Positions 1 through 6,007 of a stretch of 6,007 bases of DNA are shown here, in pieces (positions within the stretch are counted from its first letter, which is position 1; every line of letters begins with the position of its first letter). Below the pieces are notes generated by a model. That model was not told the origin of the DNA. It worked only from the letters and a program-made list of their open reading frames with translations, and did not search any database. The stretch is from a virus. The position numbers were made by a program, and so were the translations under genes. The DNA is taken from positions 1 to 6,007 of the IMG/VR virus record IMGVR_UViG_3300020030_000083. One strand, given 5' to 3'.

Positions 1-121
1 GGAACTATAGAATTCCCTCATCTCGTCATAACCTTCAGGACCTGCAGGGCCAGCAGCTTTGCGGCTAACATACGAGGCTCCTGCAATGCCTGCGGCAGTA
101 GCAAAAGCCTTTGTAGCATCA
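1..121. repeat. Terminal direct repeat copy 1 (circular-assembly overlap)
   Basis: Base-by-base comparison shows 121/121 identity with 5887..6007. Confidence 0.97.
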
Positions 122-1224
122 TAAAACAGAGCGTTCTTGTTTTTGCGAATCGCAAACCAGTTACCGGACAGGCTCTGGCGACCTTCACTAAGCTCAAGGC
201 CACGAAGATGAGAGTAATATTCGCGACCTGTAATCTCCTCGAATTCTCCAGTGGGCTCGCCTTTCTCGTTGACCAAGGGAACCTTTACAGGGGTCTCCCA
301 GGTAACTTCAAACATGCGTTGCATATCCTTCTGCTGAATGTCAAGAACATCAGCATGAGAACGGGACTCACGTGCGGAAGCTTTAGCAGCATCGGCGACA
401 GCAATAAGATAAGCAAGGTTAGCGGCAGCAGACTGTTCGAGAAGAGGAATCTCAGCATCGTTTTCAGCACGAATACGCTTAGTGCGCTCAACCTGTTCAG
501 CATAAGCGGCCTGAATACGCTGAAAATCGTAGGTGGCGGCGAGATCTGCATACTTATTGTAAGCCTCCTGATTGATAGCCAACTCGCCATAATAACGAGC
601 GAGCGAGGACTGACTATTAACGTTAGCCTGCTTTAGTTGCTTCTCGAGCTCGATAAGGGCCTGGCCCTGCTCCCTAGTGGGCATCTTGTTACGAATGTCA
701 TCAGCTTGAGCATTATCGAGATTAGCGGCAGCCTTATTGCGTTCGATAGTCGAATTGACACCCATGGCCTCAAGAGCGACACCTGCAGCGGCAGAACCGA
801 CGCCAGGAGGCAGAGGACTGGAGAAGTCAAAAGAGCCGCCTGAAGGACCGGAAGCACCAACGGAACCAGAAGAACCGCCAGACATGGTAGCATTGACGCC
901 GACGCCTGAAGAACCTAAGACAGCAGCAGGGGTAATGCCGGCCTTCAAGTAACGATCGAAAACCTTCGTGGGGTCGTTGTAAGCATTCTCGTAATCGAAC
1001 TGTTTCTGCCAGTTAGCATAGTTGATTTCACCTTGTTTTTGCATCTGCTCCAAAGCGTACTGCTGTTGAAGCTTCATTTGCTTCTGCTGATACTTCCATT
1101 GTCTCCGAAGGGATGGCTTGAAAAGACCAGAGGCAGCCTGACCGCCAGCAGAGATAGCAGCAGCGCCAAGCATAGCACCGGTGGAAACAGGCTCGACATA
1201 ACTCTTGAAATCAATAAGTCTCAT
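1..1224 (-). CDS. VP2: VP2 minor capsid / DNA pilot protein, N-terminal 408 codons. The ORF runs off the left edge and continues at 5886 on the circle (426 aa in total)
   Basis: ATG at 1224..1222. I checked all 408 in-frame plus-strand triplets from 1 to 1224 for tta/cta/tca and found none, so the frame is open to the window edge. It translates as MRLIDFKSYVEPVSTGAMLGAAAISAGGQAASGLF...YNDPTKVFDRYLKAGITPAAVLG...; the yN-P...R...AG(L/I)(N/T)P motif and Gly/Ala-rich N-terminus are typical of non-phiX microvirus VP2 (from memory). The three track ORFs 18..203, 285..590 and 633..893 all lie in its +1 frame, as expected of shadow ORFs. It is not listed in the ORF track. Confidence 0.85.
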   Translation of the reverse strand, partial: MRLIDFKSYVEPVSTGAMLGAAAISAGGQAASGLFKPSLRRQWKYQQKQMKLQQQYALEQMQKQGEINYANWQKQFDYENAYNDPTKVFDRYLKAGITPAAVLGSSGVGVNATMSGGSSGSVGASGPSGGSFDFSSPLPPGVGSAAAGVALEAMGVNSTIERNKAAANLDNAQADDIRNKMPTREQGQALIELEKQLKQANVNSQSSLARYYGELAINQEAYNKYADLAATYDFQRIQAAYAEQVERTKRIRAENDAEIPLLEQSAAANLAYLIAVADAAKASARESRSHADVLDIQQKDMQRMFEVTWETPVKVPLVNEKGEPTGEFEEITGREYYSHLRGLELSEGRQSLSGNWFAIRKNKNALFYDATKAFATAAGIAGASYVSRKAAGPAGPEGYDEMREFYSS

Positions 1225-1225
1225 A

Positions 1226-1528
1226 CTACGGAAGCGAAAAATTGTTCGAGCGAATAATATAATCTACACGGACAGTATCGATGTGAACACCATTGCGGTA
1301 AACTTTAGCCTGTGCGGAACACGAGGCCAAGAAAAAGGCAGCTAAAGCAGCGACAATGGACGAAACAAGCGTCCAAAAGGCTTTAGATTTGTAAAAGGGT
1401 TGTTTAATATCAGACATGATAGTAAAATTTAAAGAACGATAGAAAAATGCGCGGCCTCTCCGGCAGTCGTTACCAATAACCTTCAGAAATTCACGAACTC
1501 TTCCAGAAGGGGTCCGCGCACGTAGCAT
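1226..1528 (-). CDS. Small membrane protein / putative lipoprotein. It is 100 aa from ATG 1528, while internal ATG 1417 gives a 63-aa canonical lipoprotein precursor
   Basis: It is the only open frame in this interval. TAG at 1228..1226 lies 1 nt before the VP2 ATG (TAGTATG). From M38 the sequence is MSDIKQPFYKSKAFWTLVSSIVAALAAFFLASC|SAQAKV...: a Lys-containing n-region, a ~20-aa hydrophobic core and the lipobox L-A-S-C (codons 1330..1319). The upstream 37 aa are Arg-rich (net about +7). Confidence 0.6.
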   Translation of the reverse strand: MLRARTPSGRVREFLKVIGNDCRRGRAFFYRSLNFTIMSDIKQPFYKSKAFWTLVSSIVAALAAFFLASCSAQAKVYRNGVHIDTVRVDYIIRSNNFSLP

Positions 1529-1550
1529 ATATCGTCAAGTAAAGAATGTA

Positions 1551-1847
1551 CTATTTTTCTTCAGAATTAGAAGATTTCGAAGCAGATTTCGACCTATCTA
1601 ACTCTGAATCAATAAGATCCTGGCCAACCTCGAGGCCGTCAAACTTATCCATGCGAGAAAAGGAATTGGGATCGAAATCAATCTCGGGATTAAATTTTTC
1701 GCCCTTATCAAAATCGGAGGGCTCGACCGTCACATCTGGACGACCAGGAAGAACGTCGACAGTACCAGAGCCATCAAGGACAGACATAATTCGCTGGCCG
1801 CGGGAAACATAAGCGGGAGCGTCTTCAAGTAACCAATCAAGTGCCAT
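1551..1847 (-). CDS. Hypothetical acidic protein, 98 aa (possible scaffolding-like protein)
   Basis: ATG at 1847..1845 lies 12 nt after the VP1 stop. It has 22 Asp/Glu against 11 Lys/Arg by my count (net about -11), sits between VP1 and VP2, and shows the T/C-rich third codon positions seen in the other genes. Confidence 0.6.
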   Translation of the reverse strand: MALDWLLEDAPAYVSRGQRIMSVLDGSGTVDVLPGRPDVTVEPSDFDKGEKFNPEIDFDPNSFSRMDKFDGLEVGQDLIDSELDRSKSASKSSNSEEK

Positions 1848-1859
1848 AATATCAATGAA

Positions 1860-3683
1860 TTAGCGATTAGACAAACGAGTAGCGAAGGATTTGTTAACCA
1901 AGCTCTTCTTTTGAACAGCATAGGACATATTCACGAAAAAGTTGTCCTCGGCGTTAGAAGCGAACGGGGAGTTGACTTGCGACATATCGACAAATAACAT
2001 AGGATAGTAAGGGCGAGGGTTGCCGACGGACAATCCGAAGCCGTCGAAAGATCGCTGTTGCACCCAGTAAGCATAAAGAGGCATGGCACCCGGGGACGCG
2101 TATGCCGGATTAAGCTGGCCTAAAACTTCGTCGTAAGAAGACCTAAACTCATTGAAGCAAGGCTCATGAATAGCGGCCGTGCTGGCCATGGGTATGACAG
2201 ACGCCACGCGAAAGGCGGGTACATCCTGATAACCGATATCGTTATAAATCGGGTTGAAGTAATCACTGCCTAGGTAAGAAAGGTAGTCGGGCATGATATT
2301 AGACCAGTAATAAACAGGGCGAATACTCAACATATCAATCATATAACCGGGCTCGCGGAAATAATAAGACTGTCGTCGACCCAAACGGTCATTAAATGCA
2401 ATGGCACCACCCTGTTGTCCGAGGGGGTTAGTAATACCATTGTCGCCAATCTGTCCATTAAAGTTGTTATTACCCGCTTGATTCATAACGACCTGTACAT
2501 TAATAGTCTGCGAGGCACTGAAGAGGAGTTTAGGCCTATCGACGTGCTCGATTTTCGAAGCAAAAAACGTTTCCAACCAATCACTGTATCGACTGCCTCC
2601 AGCACCAAGAAGATCCTTGTACTCCTGAAGGCGAGAAGCAATAGCCAACTGCGGAATGGTCGAGACGCCGGACATAGAAACAGCGTCGGTAGAGCCGATC
2701 GGGAGCAAGCGACTAAAACGGTCAGGATTCGAAGGTACTACAGCCATCGGGTAATATTGAATGCCTAAGGTAGAAAAGCTTACATTACCTACAACAGAGG
2801 GGGCAATAGCTGTGATATAATCAGCGGGCAGCGAACCGGTAAACTTGGTAGTAAGGTTAGCTACTGGATAGCCGTTTCCTGCCGATCCAAGAGAGCCAGA
2901 ATTTAAGATAACATCACTGTTGACAATCTGAAGAAATAAATTTCCACGATTATACGTATTGTTACTAGTAGCAACGGCGGCCGGGTAGAACTGACTCTCA
3001 AAATAAGCATCAAGGAACTCAAGATTGCCATAAGACTGCGAAAAAAAAGAACCAGAGGCCGAAAGCTTGGCAGTATACTTGGCAATTTGAGTGTCATAGC
3101 GAATAGACGAAGAACCTGGCCAAGCGTACGAAAAAACGCCCCACTGCGAATAACCATAGAAGTTGCGAACGATATCCCAGTAAGCCAAAAGAGTATCGGC
3201 ATTAGCCCAGGCACCACCCACAGCATTAGCAGGAAGCTCAACGAGAGTTGAATTAACAGCGGGGACAGTTCCGTCGCCTATGACTTTTTTATTACTCAAA
3301 CGCAACCAAGCGAAGAGACTGTTAGAGGGGGCGGTCGTATGATCACCAATCAGGGAGCCAGTATCAATAGTCGTAGCTATCCAATTGAGGCTCAAATTGT
3401 TCATATCAAACTTACTGCTATTCGTCCGCAACTCCGGATGATACAGCTGAAGCGGCACCCAAAAACGATGAAGTCGAATGGTGTAGGGATTAAATGACGG
3501 AACAGCGAGCGGATTGCTGCGAACATCAATACCCTGTTCAATAGACACACGGTCACGGGCGTTAATAAAATCAATTCGCACTGGATACAAAATACCCGGC
3601 GTACACGTAAAGGCCTTACTCTCGGGAACATCGTAACGAGAGTAACCATTTACTGCATGAGAGATGAAAGGTTGTTTTCCCAT
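1860..3683 (-). CDS. VP1: VP1 major capsid protein (Microviridae F/VP1 jelly-roll family), 607 aa
   Basis: This is the longest ORF, with ATG at 3683..3681 and TAA at 1862..1860. The N-terminal FTCTPGILYPVRIDFINARDRV ... RLHRFWVPLQLY fits the conserved G-x-L-x-P ... (F/W)VPxxL pattern of microvirus capsid proteins (from memory of gokushovirus VP1). It starts 3 nt after the VP4 stop. Confidence 0.93.
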   Translation of the reverse strand: MGKQPFISHAVNGYSRYDVPESKAFTCTPGILYPVRIDFINARDRVSIEQGIDVRSNPLAVPSFNPYTIRLHRFWVPLQLYHPELRTNSSKFDMNNLSLNWIATTIDTGSLIGDHTTAPSNSLFAWLRLSNKKVIGDGTVPAVNSTLVELPANAVGGAWANADTLLAYWDIVRNFYGYSQWGVFSYAWPGSSSIRYDTQIAKYTAKLSASGSFFSQSYGNLEFLDAYFESQFYPAAVATSNNTYNRGNLFLQIVNSDVILNSGSLGSAGNGYPVANLTTKFTGSLPADYITAIAPSVVGNVSFSTLGIQYYPMAVVPSNPDRFSRLLPIGSTDAVSMSGVSTIPQLAIASRLQEYKDLLGAGGSRYSDWLETFFASKIEHVDRPKLLFSASQTINVQVVMNQAGNNNFNGQIGDNGITNPLGQQGGAIAFNDRLGRRQSYYFREPGYMIDMLSIRPVYYWSNIMPDYLSYLGSDYFNPIYNDIGYQDVPAFRVASVIPMASTAAIHEPCFNEFRSSYDEVLGQLNPAYASPGAMPLYAYWVQQRSFDGFGLSVGNPRPYYPMLFVDMSQVNSPFASNAEDNFFVNMSYAVQKKSLVNKSFATRLSNR

Positions 3684-3686
3684 AAA

Positions 3687-4757
3687 TTAAATGTTTAGTT
3701 GAAGTTTATAGTGCTCTCTCCAAAACTGAAGAATGTCCAAATCTAGCCAAGTAGGGGGGTCGAAATCGGGCATCCTCCGAGAGGAGGCGGAAAAACGCAT
3801 CATTTGCTTTTGCTCCCACGTATACGTCTCTCTACGGGATACGGCGGAATTGAGGCCGAACCGCTCAACACACAAAGACACAATACGCTTAACCAAAGGA
3901 GACTTGCTAAAACGTGCATAAGCATCAGCAGCAGCAATCGAACGTGAAACTTCGTCTTCCTGTTTAAGGTATTTAAGATAGTATCGAGGAATCGAGTAGT
4001 TGAAATTGATACGCTTCGAAAAATCGTAATAAGACCACGACGAAGTACGAGTAGAAGGGCGAGGCATGTAACCAAGAAAATCACCAACGCCAGCAGATAC
4101 GAATTTTCGCGTATAACGGCGATGTTGGAGGAGGCAAGATAGAGGTGTAAGTTTTCCATCTACGGTAACATATTTATTCGAAATTTCTTCGGGGTTAAAT
4201 TGAATTTGTTTAGTAACATACTTTACGCAATAGCGAGCGCGTTTATGAGTGGCTTTCGCGAGCCACACAAAACCAAGGTCGCGGACAGCCGCCCGAATCT
4301 CGTTATACAGACAGTTGGTGCCGAATAGAAAACCATGGAAATGTAGACGAGGCTCCGAGCCTATTTCAGGGTGAGTGCCAAATTCTTGAAAAAACGCGTG
4401 CTTGAAAGAGTGGCCGAGCGTATGGCGAACTCGCTCGTTCCATCGCCGGATAAACTTAGAGGGGTCCTGCAACGCTTCGTCGTAATACTTAGGGGCTATA
4501 GTTATTGTAATAAAAATAGCCTGCAGCGACTCGGCCTTGCAACGGGCGAGCTCGCGCTCGAGCCTGACAAACCAATCATTGCGTTGACGACGCAAACAAT
4601 CTTCGCACTTGCCACACGGAACGAGCAGCCACTGGCGGGCGATATCCCAGGGGCGAAGGGCTAAAGCAGACTTAGCAACGTCGGAGCCATCACGACAAGG
4701 GTTCTTCTTGTCGAAATAGCGGCGATTGCGTATCCATATAGGCGAAGAGCAGGGCAT
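3687..4757 (-). CDS. VP4: VP4 replication initiation protein (HUH rolling-circle endonuclease), 356 aa from the first ATG
   Basis: HUH motifs are present: motif 1 AIFITITIAPKY, motif 2 RLHFHGFLF (H-x-H) and motif 3 ARYCVKYVTKQ (Y-xxx-Y-xx-K, two catalytic Tyr). The Cys cluster VPCGKCEDCLRRQRNDW and an N-terminus MPCSSPIWIRN are typical of VP4. The track start at 4778 is a TTG. The first ATG (4757..4755) overlaps the ORF66 stop as TGATG. Confidence 0.93.
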   Translation of the reverse strand: MPCSSPIWIRNRRYFDKKNPCRDGSDVAKSALALRPWDIARQWLLVPCGKCEDCLRRQRNDWFVRLERELARCKAESLQAIFITITIAPKYYDEALQDPSKFIRRWNERVRHTLGHSFKHAFFQEFGTHPEIGSEPRLHFHGFLFGTNCLYNEIRAAVRDLGFVWLAKATHKRARYCVKYVTKQIQFNPEEISNKYVTVDGKLTPLSCLLQHRRYTRKFVSAGVGDFLGYMPRPSTRTSSWSYYDFSKRINFNYSIPRYYLKYLKQEDEVSRSIAAADAYARFSKSPLVKRIVSLCVERFGLNSAVSRRETYTWEQKQMMRFSASSRRMPDFDPPTWLDLDILQFWREHYKLQLNI

Positions 4758-4957
4758 CAGAATAAGCTTTGAAGACAATCAAATTTGACATTAGGGTGAT
4801 CAAGACGACAGCGAGCAAGATAGTCATTTGCGGAAACCTTGTCGGCAAACCAAGCGATAATGACTCGCTTTCTACCTCTGTATGCGCCAATAGAATAGCG
4901 ACAGGAAACGTTATTGACAGTAGGGCAAAAAAAAGGGCGAAAATCAAAGCTATCCAT
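4757..4957 (-). CDS. Hypothetical small protein, 66 aa, mildly basic with 4 Cys, translationally coupled to VP4
   Basis: ATG at 4957..4955. The TGA stop (4759..4757) shares its A with the VP4 ATG. Third codon positions are strongly T/C-biased like the confirmed genes. Cys lie at 11, 19, 50 and 61. I recognise no family. Confidence 0.55.
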   Translation of the reverse strand: MDSFDFRPFFCPTVNNVSCRYSIGAYRGRKRVIIAWFADKVSANDYLARCRLDHPNVKFDCLQSLF

Positions 4958-4985
4958 AAAAAAAGTATTTACGGGTTAAAAGGAA

Positions 4986-5050
4986 GAACCACCAGGGGAG
5001 TACCTTACCGCTTCGCGGTGGCCACAACCTTCGGTTGTCCCCTGGGGTTC
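4986..5050 (-). other. 65-nt Y-shaped (three-way junction) secondary-structure element. It is a candidate complementary-strand origin on the viral ssDNA and/or a transcription terminator/attenuator
   Basis: The outer stem pairs 4986-4990/5046-5050 and 4992-4998/5039-5045 (12 bp, one bulged A4991). Hairpin 1 is 5007-5011/5015-5019 and hairpin 2 is 5024-5029/5033-5038. On the viral (minus) strand both are capped by GAA triloops closed by C:G. Hairpin 1 reads GCGAAGC (complement of 5010..5016) and hairpin 2 reads CCGAAGG (complement of 5028..5034). The element lies in the largest intergenic gap and is followed on the minus strand by TTCCTTTTAA. Confidence 0.6.
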
Positions 5051-5069
5051 AAGTAATTAAAGAACTCTT

Positions 5070-5084
5070 CCGCCAAGAGGGCGG
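5070..5084 (-). terminator. Small GC-rich hairpin 9 nt after the ORF107 stop (weak terminator candidate)
   Basis: The minus strand reads CCGCC-CTCTT-GGCGG (5-bp stem, 5-nt loop), then AAGAG TTCTTTAATT. The loop CTCTT can alternatively pair with the following AAGAG (5065..5069), so two mutually exclusive hairpins are possible. There is no classic U-tract directly abutting the stem. Confidence 0.25.
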
Positions 5085-5093
5085 GTCACCACC

Positions 5094-5417
5094 TTAGTTC
5101 CCCGACTCTTCTTTTTTCGTCGTGCTTTCATCGTAGTTGAGATCAAAATCAAACATGAGAACCATCGTATTATCAAAAAACTCGACACCAAAGCCAGAAA
5201 AACCTCCGCAAGCAGCAACAAGGTTTGCTATTTCCGAGTGATTGACATAAAGAGAATCGCTGATGTCCGAACTCTCCAAGAAGCGAGCAATAGGAGTTTT
5301 CGCGAAAGCGCCAAGGGGAAGCGGGTCAAACTGGCCATCTTTTAAACGGCCTATCTGGACGAGGTCAATCTTAAGAGCCGGACTAACCCGCCGAATAACA
5401 ACATGAATCTGTGTCAT
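5094..5417 (-). CDS. Hypothetical protein, 107 aa, acidic C-terminal tail
   Basis: ATG at 5417..5415 lies 11 nt after the ORF106 stop, and TAA is at 5096..5094. Codons are T-ending-rich like the confirmed genes. I recognise no family. Confidence 0.6.
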   Translation of the reverse strand: MTQIHVVIRRVSPALKIDLVQIGRLKDGQFDPLPLGAFAKTPIARFLESSDISDSLYVNHSEIANLVAACGGFSGFGVEFFDNTMVLMFDFDLNYDESTTKKEESGN

Positions 5418-5428
5418 AATAACGTGAT

Positions 5429-5749
5429 TTAAAGTTTTTCTATAAATTCAGAGCAAAAACGTTTCCAAGCAGCGGACTGATCGTTCCAAAAGTTAGGGCC
5501 TTCAGGCGTCTCAGTGAACAGAAACGCAGTGGTGACGAGGTGGCTCGGCTTGAAGCCGAAACCGTGAAGAGAGTGTCGAATGTGAGAACGCAGCCGATCG
5601 CGAAAACTCTTGTAGGGTGCGAAAGCGCGCTCGTAATTCGCCTCAAATGCGGAAAATATTCCTCGACGAACGAGCCACTCGGTGAATGCGTACTCTACAA
5701 CGTCAATCATTAAATCATTAATGCGGGAATTTTTGGTTAACTTTTTCAT
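5429..5749 (-). CDS. Hypothetical protein, 106 aa, first gene after the candidate promoter
   Basis: ATG at 5749..5747 and TAA at 5431..5429. It is on the same strand as all other genes. The track ORF 5440..5646 lies in its +1 frame, as shadow ORFs do. I recognise no family. Confidence 0.6.
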   Translation of the reverse strand: MKKLTKNSRINDLMIDVVEYAFTEWLVRRGIFSAFEANYERAFAPYKSFRDRLRSHIRHSLHGFGFKPSHLVTTAFLFTETPEGPNFWNDQSAAWKRFCSEFIEKL

Positions 5750-5775
5750 AACGATATGGTTATTGGTTTACAACG

Positions 5776-5806
5776 CAAAAATATGGCAAAAAAGGATAAC
5801 AGCAAA
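5776..5806 (-). promoter_or_regulatory. Candidate Bacteroides-type promoter (-33 TTTG / -7 TAnnTTTG)
   Basis: The minus strand reads TTTG (5806..5803), a 19-nt spacer (5802..5784), then TATTTTTG (5783..5776). This fits the Bacteroides consensus TTTG-N19-21-TAnnTTTG as I recall it. It lies in the 80-nt gap between the VP2 stop and the ORF106 ATG, 26 nt upstream of that ATG. It is the only complete bipartite match I found on this strand, and it is flanked by phased T-tracts. Confidence 0.5.
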
Positions 5807-5829
5807 GTTCAAAAAGTCGAAAGAAGTGT

Positions 5830-6007
5830 TCATTGTCTCTTAAAATAACTACGACGAGTGTGGGTCGCACCAATTTGATCGCCATCGGAACTATAGAATT
5901 CCCTCATCTCGTCATAACCTTCAGGACCTGCAGGGCCAGCAGCTTTGCGGCTAACATACGAGGCTCCTGCAATGCCTGCGGCAGTAGCAAAAGCCTTTGT
6001 AGCATCA
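5830..6007 (-). CDS. VP2: VP2 C-terminal end. 5887..6007 duplicates 1..121; 5830..5886 holds the last 18 codons plus the stop
   Basis: The same frame continues from position 1 (= 5887) into 5886..5833, giving DGDQIGATHTRRSYFKRQ, then TGA at 5832..5830. Confidence 0.85.
   Translation of the reverse strand, partial: DATKAFATAAGIAGASYVSRKAAGPAGPEGYDEMREFYSSDGDQIGATHTRRSYFKRQ
5887..6007. repeat. Terminal direct repeat copy 2 (circular-assembly overlap)
   Basis: Identical to 1..121. The window ends inside the duplicated segment. Confidence 0.97.

Follow-up and report, generated by a model that had tools for sequence, protein, structure and literature searches.

Which function is served by a three-way junction that occupies the only sizeable non-coding gap of a microvirus genome? 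The question is raised by the IMG/VR virus record IMGVR_UViG_3300020030_000083, analysed over its positions 1 to 6,007 (this whole stretch of 6,007 nucleotides, nt, is called the window below). Such phages are among the most abundant single-stranded DNA (ssDNA) viruses of the mammalian gut. An initial annotation had described the region 4958..5093 as a candidate complementary-strand origin or, alternatively, as a terminator or attenuator of transcription between the leading small open reading frames (ORFs) and the Rep/capsid block. For the outer stem of the junction, comparison with relatives speaks for the second of these readings. Judging from sequence comparisons, this stem, P1, and the T-rich tail that follows it are probably the local version of the single conserved intrinsic terminator or attenuator of the family, and probably also protect the 3' end of the mRNA. 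The stem carries within its loop a conserved insert of two hairpins, P2 and P3, whose caps are of a type known from ssDNA priming sites. The junction is real and strongly conserved, and the clade that contains it consists of gut microviruses infecting Alistipes-like bacteria.

The junction covers 65 nt (4986..5050) of the minus strand, which is the viral and mRNA-sense strand, and is thus read from 5050 to 4986; it is supported by folding, covariation and a covariance model. Stem P1 consists of 12 base pairs (bp) and one bulge. Its 5' arm GAACCCCAGGGG (5039..5050) pairs with the 3' arm CCCCTGG(T)GGTTC (4986..4998), where the bulged T is at 4991 (A on the plus strand); the bulged base (T, A or C) and its position differ among relatives. 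The mini-hairpin P2, ACAACC-GAA-GGTTGT (5024..5038, 6 bp, loop 5032..5030), contains the string CCGAAGG, and the mini-hairpin P3, ACCGC-GAA-GCGGT (5007..5019, 5 bp, loop 5014..5012), contains GCGAAGC. P3 may be extended by three pairs, 5022..5020 with 5004..5002, which are lost in two relatives (L001 and L132; relatives and other loci are cited by L numbers). The stems are joined by the strands J2/3, GGCC (5023..5020), and J3/1, AAGGTACT (4999..5006). The junction is followed by the T-rich tail TTCCTTTTAACCC (4973..4985), which reads GGTTCTTCCTTTT when the last bases of the stem are included and forms an interrupted U-tract, and by an A/T-rich leader GTAAATACTTTTTTT (4958..4972) that precedes the ATG of ORF66 and contains the motif CGTA(A/T)ATAC, conserved across the junction clade. 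All these features are on the minus strand. The architecture is as initially described, with hairpins of 5 and 6 bp inside the 12-bp stem and with both loops being GAA closed by C:G on the packaged strand.

The fold is also unusually stable. The core (5050..4986) has an energy of -35.6 kcal/mol as RNA (z -3.98) and of -18.9 kcal/mol as DNA (z -3.97), the latter with the ViennaRNA DNA parameter set, which may or may not carry a bonus for GAA triloops. In either case none of 200 dinucleotide shuffles was as low. For the full 136 nt of 4958..5093 the z-scores are -3.2 (DNA) and -2.2 (RNA). Among all 70-nt windows of the genome, the junction is the most stable under both parameter sets, with z about -4 to -5: -36.8 against a genome mean of -13.4 (standard deviation 4.9) for RNA, and -19.8 against -5.7 (standard deviation 2.7) for DNA. 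At the least, the P2-P3 insert contributes some 15 kcal/mol (RNA) of stability and pre-organises the stem.

No known RNA family was recognised here: Rfam gave no match in the junction region of the window (E up to 10) nor in the same region of six relatives (E up to 1), and ARAGORN found no tRNA and no tmRNA. A hammerhead-like three-way junction was considered and rejected, as the CUGAUGA/GAAA core was not found by inspection and the Rfam search was negative. Dif-like attachment sites have been discussed for proviruses of Bacteroidetes microviruses (PMC3091885); the 28-bp dif-like consensus of the XerCD site has no match with three or fewer mismatches anywhere in the window.

The initial annotation had taken all 136 nt of 4958..5093 as the largest non-coding gap. 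It is still the largest gap, but its 5' part is coding. The 37 nt 5093..5057 are the last 12 codons of ORF24, an unannotated basic ORF of 24 amino acids (MKARRKKKSRGTKVVTRPLGGRVL; 5131..5057, minus strand) that overlaps the 3' end of ORF107 in a different reading frame. This leaves 99 nt (5056..4958) as the true gap, with the junction beginning 6 nt past the ORF24 stop codon. In relatives the 35 nt 5' of the junction are near-invariant, with differences at every third base only, and always end in TAA, TGA or TAG. This block had been a candidate plus-strand origin or Rep site, and was rejected as such since its conservation has the codon pattern and it encodes the C-terminus of ORF24. The same applies to the small upstream hairpin at 5070..5084, which the initial annotation had added to the terminator alternative: it lies inside ORF24, and its variation, restricted to third positions, reflects codons and not pairing. 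The conserved form of ORF24, MKARRKKKGKGTKVVTRPLGGRVL, is shared by about 85 genomes, and the ORF is absent from the annotation of the relatives' GenBank records. No matches to it were found in PHROGs or by tblastn, the query being short and of low complexity. By size and charge, though only by these, ORF24 seems to correspond to J, the small basic protein of phiX174-like phages, and its product is a candidate J-like DNA-binding or packaging peptide.

Relatives were collected independently of the structure, by BLAST against GenBank phages, as homologues of ORF107 in IMG/VR, and by searching IMG/VR and metagenomes for a 19-nt pattern taken from the sequence conserved 5' of the junction. The junction was found in 18-21 distinct sequences. 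In the alignment of 18 of them, 98.1% of the pair cells are paired, compared to 30-49% in slid controls, and six pairs show double, compensatory changes, a number matched by none of 500 shuffles; compensatory substitutions in the stems were what the initial annotation had suggested looking for. In L008 the entire P1 is rewritten (AAGCAGGCGCGG / CCGCGCTTGCTT) with its 12 bp kept, in L120 a G-C pair of P1 is replaced by T-A, and in L136 the bulge is absorbed into a pair. In P2, A-T pairs are replaced by G-C at two positions. The P2 loop is GAA in 15 of the 18 sequences, the others being AAA (L151), AAC (L008) and a TAAC-type loop (L132).

P3 behaves differently. Its stem and loop do not vary in any of the 18 distinct sequences, and the segment 5023..4999, which covers the P3 loop and the unpaired junction strands, has a mean pairwise identity of 0.936. 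The strands J3/1 and J2/3 are not invariant: the P3 extension is lost in the two relatives mentioned above, and L004 differs at one position. In the junction as a whole the identity is 0.86-0.94 (0.88-0.94 in the insert), against 0.52-0.60 at synonymous sites of the flanking genes in the same clade. Thus the P2-P3 insert is under purifying selection at the level of the sequence, which suggests that it is also recognised by something. The junction covariance model yielded full-junction matches only in this clade, and the P3 string, searched for beyond the family as well, turned up only in the junction clade. The insert is thus dispensable at the family level, as would be expected of a chance palindrome or a neutral hitch-hiking insertion. 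Nevertheless, such an origin is very improbable in view of the folding z of about -4 to -5, the compensatory changes in both P1 and P2, and an identity of 0.88-0.94 in a clade where synonymous sites are near saturation.

What argues for a terminator is the comparison with the rest of the family. At the homologous position, the 119 other unique intergenic regions contain a plain GC-rich hairpin of 10-14 bp, in most cases followed by a T-tract. At least six T within 10 nt past the last G:C pair are seen in 70 of these 119 regions, the background T frequency being 0.31. Typical examples are CCTGCGGGAGAAAAATCTCTCGCAGG followed by TTTTTTTTT, and TCCCAGGGGAGTCGCTCTCCCCTGGGA followed by TTTTTTTT; the tracts of these homologous simple hairpins are canonical, T5-T10. 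The T-rich tail of the window is homologous to GGGTTCTTTTT(T)ATT of the simple-hairpin relatives, and the tail of its clade, GGTTC TTCCTTTT, is a slightly degraded form of GGGTTC TTTTTT, the tail seen in the closest simple versions. The simple versions keep their pairing although their loops and stems have different sequences in different sub-clades, as expected of terminators.

The most informative relative is L130 (IMGVR_UViG_3300020041_000017), which has the same arms, GAACCCCAGGGG and CCCCTGAGGGTTC, closed by a simple 8-nt loop ATATGCTT, and thus provides a natural control without the insert. Moreover, the junction covariance model aligns end to end (positions 1-88) with the simple hairpins, skipping P2-P3 (E 5e-4 to 0.15). 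It follows that P2-P3, of 40 nt, was inserted into the loop of a hairpin that already existed. By the same comparison, the stem shared with L130 and the simple hairpins of the other relatives point to the outer stem as the probable post-gene terminator or attenuator of the family. The strand bias is consistent with a function in RNA: the sense strand is the more stable one in 106 of 138 sequences, and G.U pairs make up 10% of the pairs on the sense strand compared to 3.8% on the complement (119 simple-hairpin regions, Wilcoxon p 2e-15).

The context fits as well. The Bacteroidetes promoter consensus is TTTG at -33 and TAnnTTTG at -7, and both this promoter and rho-independent terminators are documented in Bacteroides (PMC7366714). 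The window contains a single full match to this consensus, TTTG-N19-TATTTTTG (5806..5776, minus, that is, coding strand), 27 nt upstream of ORF106. A match at the same location is present in 39 of 72 genomes of the family; these make up 39 of the 40 sense-strand matches, and there are three antisense matches. The GC-rich stem-loop thus stands on the sense strand, 6 nt after the stop codon of a co-oriented unit and about 750 nt from its promoter. RNA polymerase would start at this promoter, or come from others lying further upstream on the circular genome, and transcribe ORF106, ORF107 and the overlapping ORF24. Six nucleotides past the ORF24 stop it would meet a very stable GC hairpin followed by UUCUUCCUUUU. 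A part of the polymerases would stop there and the rest would continue into ORF66, Rep and the capsid gene, so that the hairpin would set the ratio of small-gene to Rep-block transcripts; in the clade of the window, its apical loop is replaced by the 40-nt insert of two GC mini-hairpins, giving the three-way junction. We infer both termination at this hairpin and its partial character. No sequence between the junction and ORF66 fits the promoter consensus, so that expression of the Rep side probably depends on read-through, and the terminator would accordingly be leaky. A lone -7-like box TAGATTTG was observed at 3745..3738, about 55 nt upstream of the capsid ATG.

A similar arrangement exists in phiX174, where a GC hairpin GGGGCTTCGGCCCC is situated 5 nt past the stop codon of gene J, encoding the small basic protein J. 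We take it to be the T_J terminator and mRNA stabiliser. Both hairpins are GC-rich, occur on the sense strand 5-6 nt past the stop of a gene for a tiny, very basic protein, and have only a weak U-tract, both being presumably leaky by design. On the other hand, the phiX174 hairpin is a simple stem with an RNA-type C(UUCG)G tetraloop, whereas the apex of the element considered here is an insert of 40 nt with two hairpins, whose C-GAA-G caps are of the DNA type. The hosts are different (E. coli and Bacteroidales, respectively), and there is no sequence homology.

Several observations weigh against the terminator. Branched terminators are, to our knowledge, unusual; the element is not a single unbranched hairpin with a short loop, the unbranched form being that of L130. 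The U-tract 3' of the stem (GGUUC followed by UUCCUUUU) is split by CC (TTCTTCCTTTT), and a simple consensus scan for sigma-70 promoters and terminators made no call at the junction; its counts were at chance level, and the sigma-70 rules are unsuited to Bacteroidota. Further, a terminator needs pairing only, yet the unpaired junction bases and the P3 loop are conserved far above synonymous sites. The mRNA and the packaged ssDNA are identical in sequence, and hence strand specificity cannot separate a role in RNA from a role in ssDNA. Finally, C-GAA-G caps are exceptionally stable in DNA and far less so in RNA (PMC13037366), which would be odd if they had been selected as RNA alone.

These last points bear on the origin proposed initially. 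One possibility, which we consider open to serious doubt, is that the junction, or its P2-P3 part with C-GAA-G caps that presumably resist heat and nucleases, is a complementary-strand initiation signal: it would stay folded in incoming ssDNA coated with single-stranded DNA-binding protein (SSB), exclude SSB, and recruit the host primase, a PriA-type primosome or RNA polymerase for minus-strand synthesis. Such a role of the insert could coexist with the terminator role of P1. The need for a site of this kind in all microviruses, and the start of the second strand outside the phiX174/G4 group, have been noted as an open question (PMC9865509).

The caps do match the mini-hairpin motifs of known ssDNA priming sites, and the link between GNA/GNNA mini-hairpins and such sites that the initial annotation had drawn is real (PMC13037366). 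This review by the discoverers lists mini-hairpins at the primase origins of G4 (GCGAAAGC) and of St-1 and alpha3 (GCGTTAGC), in ssiA of RSF1010 (CCGAAGG, identical to the P2 string) and in the promoter hairpins of N4. P2 and P3 have the features of this class (GCGNAGC / GCGNNAGC), namely a G-N-A loop, a 5'-C:G-3' closing pair and a GC stem, by the definition of PMC13037366; a role of the closing pair is described in PMC3201870. The recollections of phiX174 in the initial annotation also proved accurate: GCGAAGC occurs at 2358-2364, in the F-G intergenic region beside the primosome site, and CCCGAAGGG at 4332-4340, 26 nt 3' of the annotated origin. In addition to these parallels, the junction is the most stable DNA fold of the genome, and P3 and the junction strands are under purifying selection at the sequence level, both as would be expected of an initiation signal.

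The likeness to particular systems is partial. The G4, St-1 and alpha3 origins are also intergenic hairpin clusters on the packaged strand with GCGNAGC/GCGNNAGC-class motifs (PMC13037366), and here too the packaged strand has a folded cluster of hairpins in non-coding DNA. However, those origins have three tandem hairpins with a defined primer start, unlike the single three-way junction nested in a terminator stem, which is a candidate from sequence alone. A G4-type origin would be expected in every member with the same replication machinery, whereas P2-P3 is confined to one clade. The string GCGAAAGC of the G4 type was also observed in the window at 5302..5309, on the plus, non-packaged strand inside ORF107, within a short palindrome (5293..5312); this is probably coincidental.

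The n'/PriA site region (F-G) of phiX174, a folded ssDNA signal for minus-strand synthesis according to Shlomai & Kornberg (1980) as cited in PMC9865509, contains both GCGAAGC and CGCCGAAGCGGTAA, the latter at the base of the F-G intergenic hairpin. Its architecture is different, and the only shared sequence is the 10-mer GAAGCGGTAA, found in CGCCGAAGCGGTAA (2311..2324 of phiX174, L352) and at 5016..5004 of the window (P3 and its 3' flank). With about 0.2 such matches expected, it was dismissed as a chance match. In RSF1010 ssiA, the mini-hairpin with the P2 string supports binding of the primase RepB' to the adjacent stem (PMC13037366), but this origin belongs to a plasmid and is served by a dedicated primase, and the window contains no RepB'-like gene. 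The hairpins of reekeekee- and roodoodoo-microviruses, for which origin or other roles have been considered, are also conserved and covarying and occupy the gap upstream of Rep (PMC9865509); they belong to other clades and hosts and are simple hairpins without a junction capped by mini-hairpins. Thus the element is kin to known kinds, the intergenic hairpins of microviruses and the ssDNA signals bearing mini-hairpins, and does not constitute a new category.

The same intergenic region in relatives provides a further argument for initiation. About 70 of them carry, between the plain terminator and ORF66, a different structured block of roughly 110-150 nt, here called type A (for example, L074, ~1900-2060, and L009, 5800-5990). 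It comprises a hairpin ACCGRN-TTTA-NYCGGT, a long covarying stem around a two-hairpin junction and, after these, a hairpin TCGAAAG-TACCGY-CTTTCGA. The two core hairpins are GACGC-GNA-GCGTC and CNGCC-GTTA(A)-GGCNG. The C-GNA-G cap admits any base at its middle position (A 31, C 25, T 8, G 7), whereas the other cap is C-GTTA(A)-G; these loops obey the rule of DNA mini-hairpins and not the GNRA rule of RNA. Nine pairs show double changes, and the outer stems alternate between A-U and G-C (11:11) and between C-G and U-A (12:10). There was no Rfam match to the type-A block, which is a candidate novel structured ssDNA/RNA element. That this one locus carries the two-mini-hairpin design in two sequences of unrelated kind speaks for selection on the design as such. 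A tentative extension, which we hold to be unlikely, is that P2-P3 is a portable single-strand initiation (ssi) module, residing here in the terminator loop and in other guise in the covarying block of about 110 nt of the relatives; it would keep its fold in virion DNA covered by SSB, where it would attract the priming machinery of Bacteroidales. Another, GC-rich block, type B (CGAGCCGTTAAGAGCGCGGCGAGTAAGTGTTTCCGGAGCCGATGATATCGCGGACGCGAGATCGAGGCCCGAAACAGCGCAGCCCGCTTAGGCTCG), was observed at the same place in L010, L011, L012, L015, L022, L041, L057 and others, as well as in L060, L067, L072, L075 and L078. In L096 it is precisely deleted, with CGAGCCGTTAGGCACG left.

On the other hand, the insert is specific to one clade, and structured blocks are present or absent between near-identical genomes (L104 and L149, L096 and L099). 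In a sizeable group of close relatives that have ORF66 and a plain hairpin, there is no GNA mini-hairpin anywhere and no other strong fold in a consistent place. The P2 loop departs from GNA in three of the 18 sequences, and the upstream hairpin of the initial annotation is coding. By inspection, the flanks contain no single-stranded CTG or other known primase signal. The only CTG is buried inside the 3' arm of P1 (CCCCTGG), so that a CTG-type start is lacking, although CTG may not be the signal of the Bacteroidales primase. Origins of the ssoA type have conserved RS_B and CS-6 (TAGCGT/A) sequences, and no TAGCG of CS-6 was found by inspection in 5056..4958. Dispensability by itself weakens the origin without eliminating it, since M13 tolerates the loss of its own: deletions of the M13 minus-strand origin are viable.

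If the initiation reading were true, gut (non-enterobacterial) microviruses would have their first defined complementary-strand origin, with a module gained, lost and swapped among lineages and with one 65-nt element serving both as an RNA terminator and as a DNA priming site. The candidate is compact and testable, and comes with natural controls: the same stem with the insert in the clade of the window and without it in L130, and sister genomes with a different two-mini-hairpin block or none. If the element is a terminator only, it is an ordinary feature of an unusual branched shape.

The conservation of P3 and the junction strands beyond structural need may also be explained by a protein site unrelated to priming. 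These would be bound by Rep (VP4), the 24-amino-acid peptide or the ORF66 product, and would serve the plus-strand origin, packaging, or translational control of ORF66 and Rep. Reps of the HUH type often act at hairpins, and the junction, situated in the only sizeable gap, directly precedes ORF66 and Rep. However, the insert is missing from relatives with a homologous Rep, basic peptide and ORF66; L102 has the junction but lacks ORF66; and after the ORF24 codons are discounted, the gap shows no family-wide conservation. Further, the phiX-like Rep nick motif ACTTGATANTAAT, with up to three mismatches, occurs in the window at chance level and not in the gap. We therefore consider such a site improbable. 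As an observation on ORF66 itself, the gene is optional: in L102 the junction is directly followed by Rep, and L009 retains only a C-terminal remnant of ORF66, 3' of its type-A block.

Bacteroidales as the host order, assumed above for the promoter consensus, were identified from CRISPR arrays. The metagenome contig L276 (2240 nt) is a CRISPR array of about 34 units, with the 36-nt repeat GTTGTGGTTTGATGTAGAATTTCGATAAGATACAAC and spacers of about 30 nt. Of its spacers, 12 or more match sequences of this family of microviruses; the ORF24 stretch and the type-A block are among those matched. The exact repeat had no matches in species-representative genomes; with a relaxed pattern, arrays one mismatch away were found in genomes of Candidatus Alistipes and Tidjanibacter (loci L281, L333, L342, L285 and L321), and the Alistipes arrays too carry matching spacers. 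The repeats and spacers together point to Rikenellaceae (Bacteroidales; Alistipes) as hosts. The family also gains a working transcription map, with one consensus Bacteroidetes promoter and one probable terminator; the unannotated J-like basic protein of 24 amino acids and the assignment to Alistipes/Rikenellaceae from CRISPR spacers are new as well.

The remainder of the genome is organised as follows. The window ends in an exact direct repeat of 121 nt (1-121 = 5887-6007), an overlap of a circular assembly, and thus represents a circular microvirus genome of 5886 nt. An apparent gap of 255 nt at the window end was rejected as an artefact of this repeat. All long ORFs are on the minus strand, which is the viral strand, and the map starts at the promoter region (5776..5806) upstream of ORF106. 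ORF106 (5749..5429), the first gene past the promoter, is annotated as hypothetical in relatives. It is followed by ORF107 (5417..5094), a conserved hypothetical protein upstream of the junction, and, downstream of the junction, by ORF66 (4957..4757), a conserved small protein whose stop codon overlaps the ATG of Rep (VP4) at 4757. Searches of Pfam and PHROGs with ORF66, ORF106 and ORF107 gave no informative matches. Rep (4757..3687) matches Pfam REP_ORF2-G2P and a PHROG of replication initiation. Then come the capsid gene VP1 (3683..1860), ORF98 and ORF100 between VP1 and VP2, and VP2 (1224..1, continuing at 5886..5830), which crosses the window ends and has its real stop codon at 5832..5830. 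In GenBank, the closest records come from faeces of pig, civet and deer and are unclassified Microviridae, the six closest being 76-81% identical over 52-69% of the genome.

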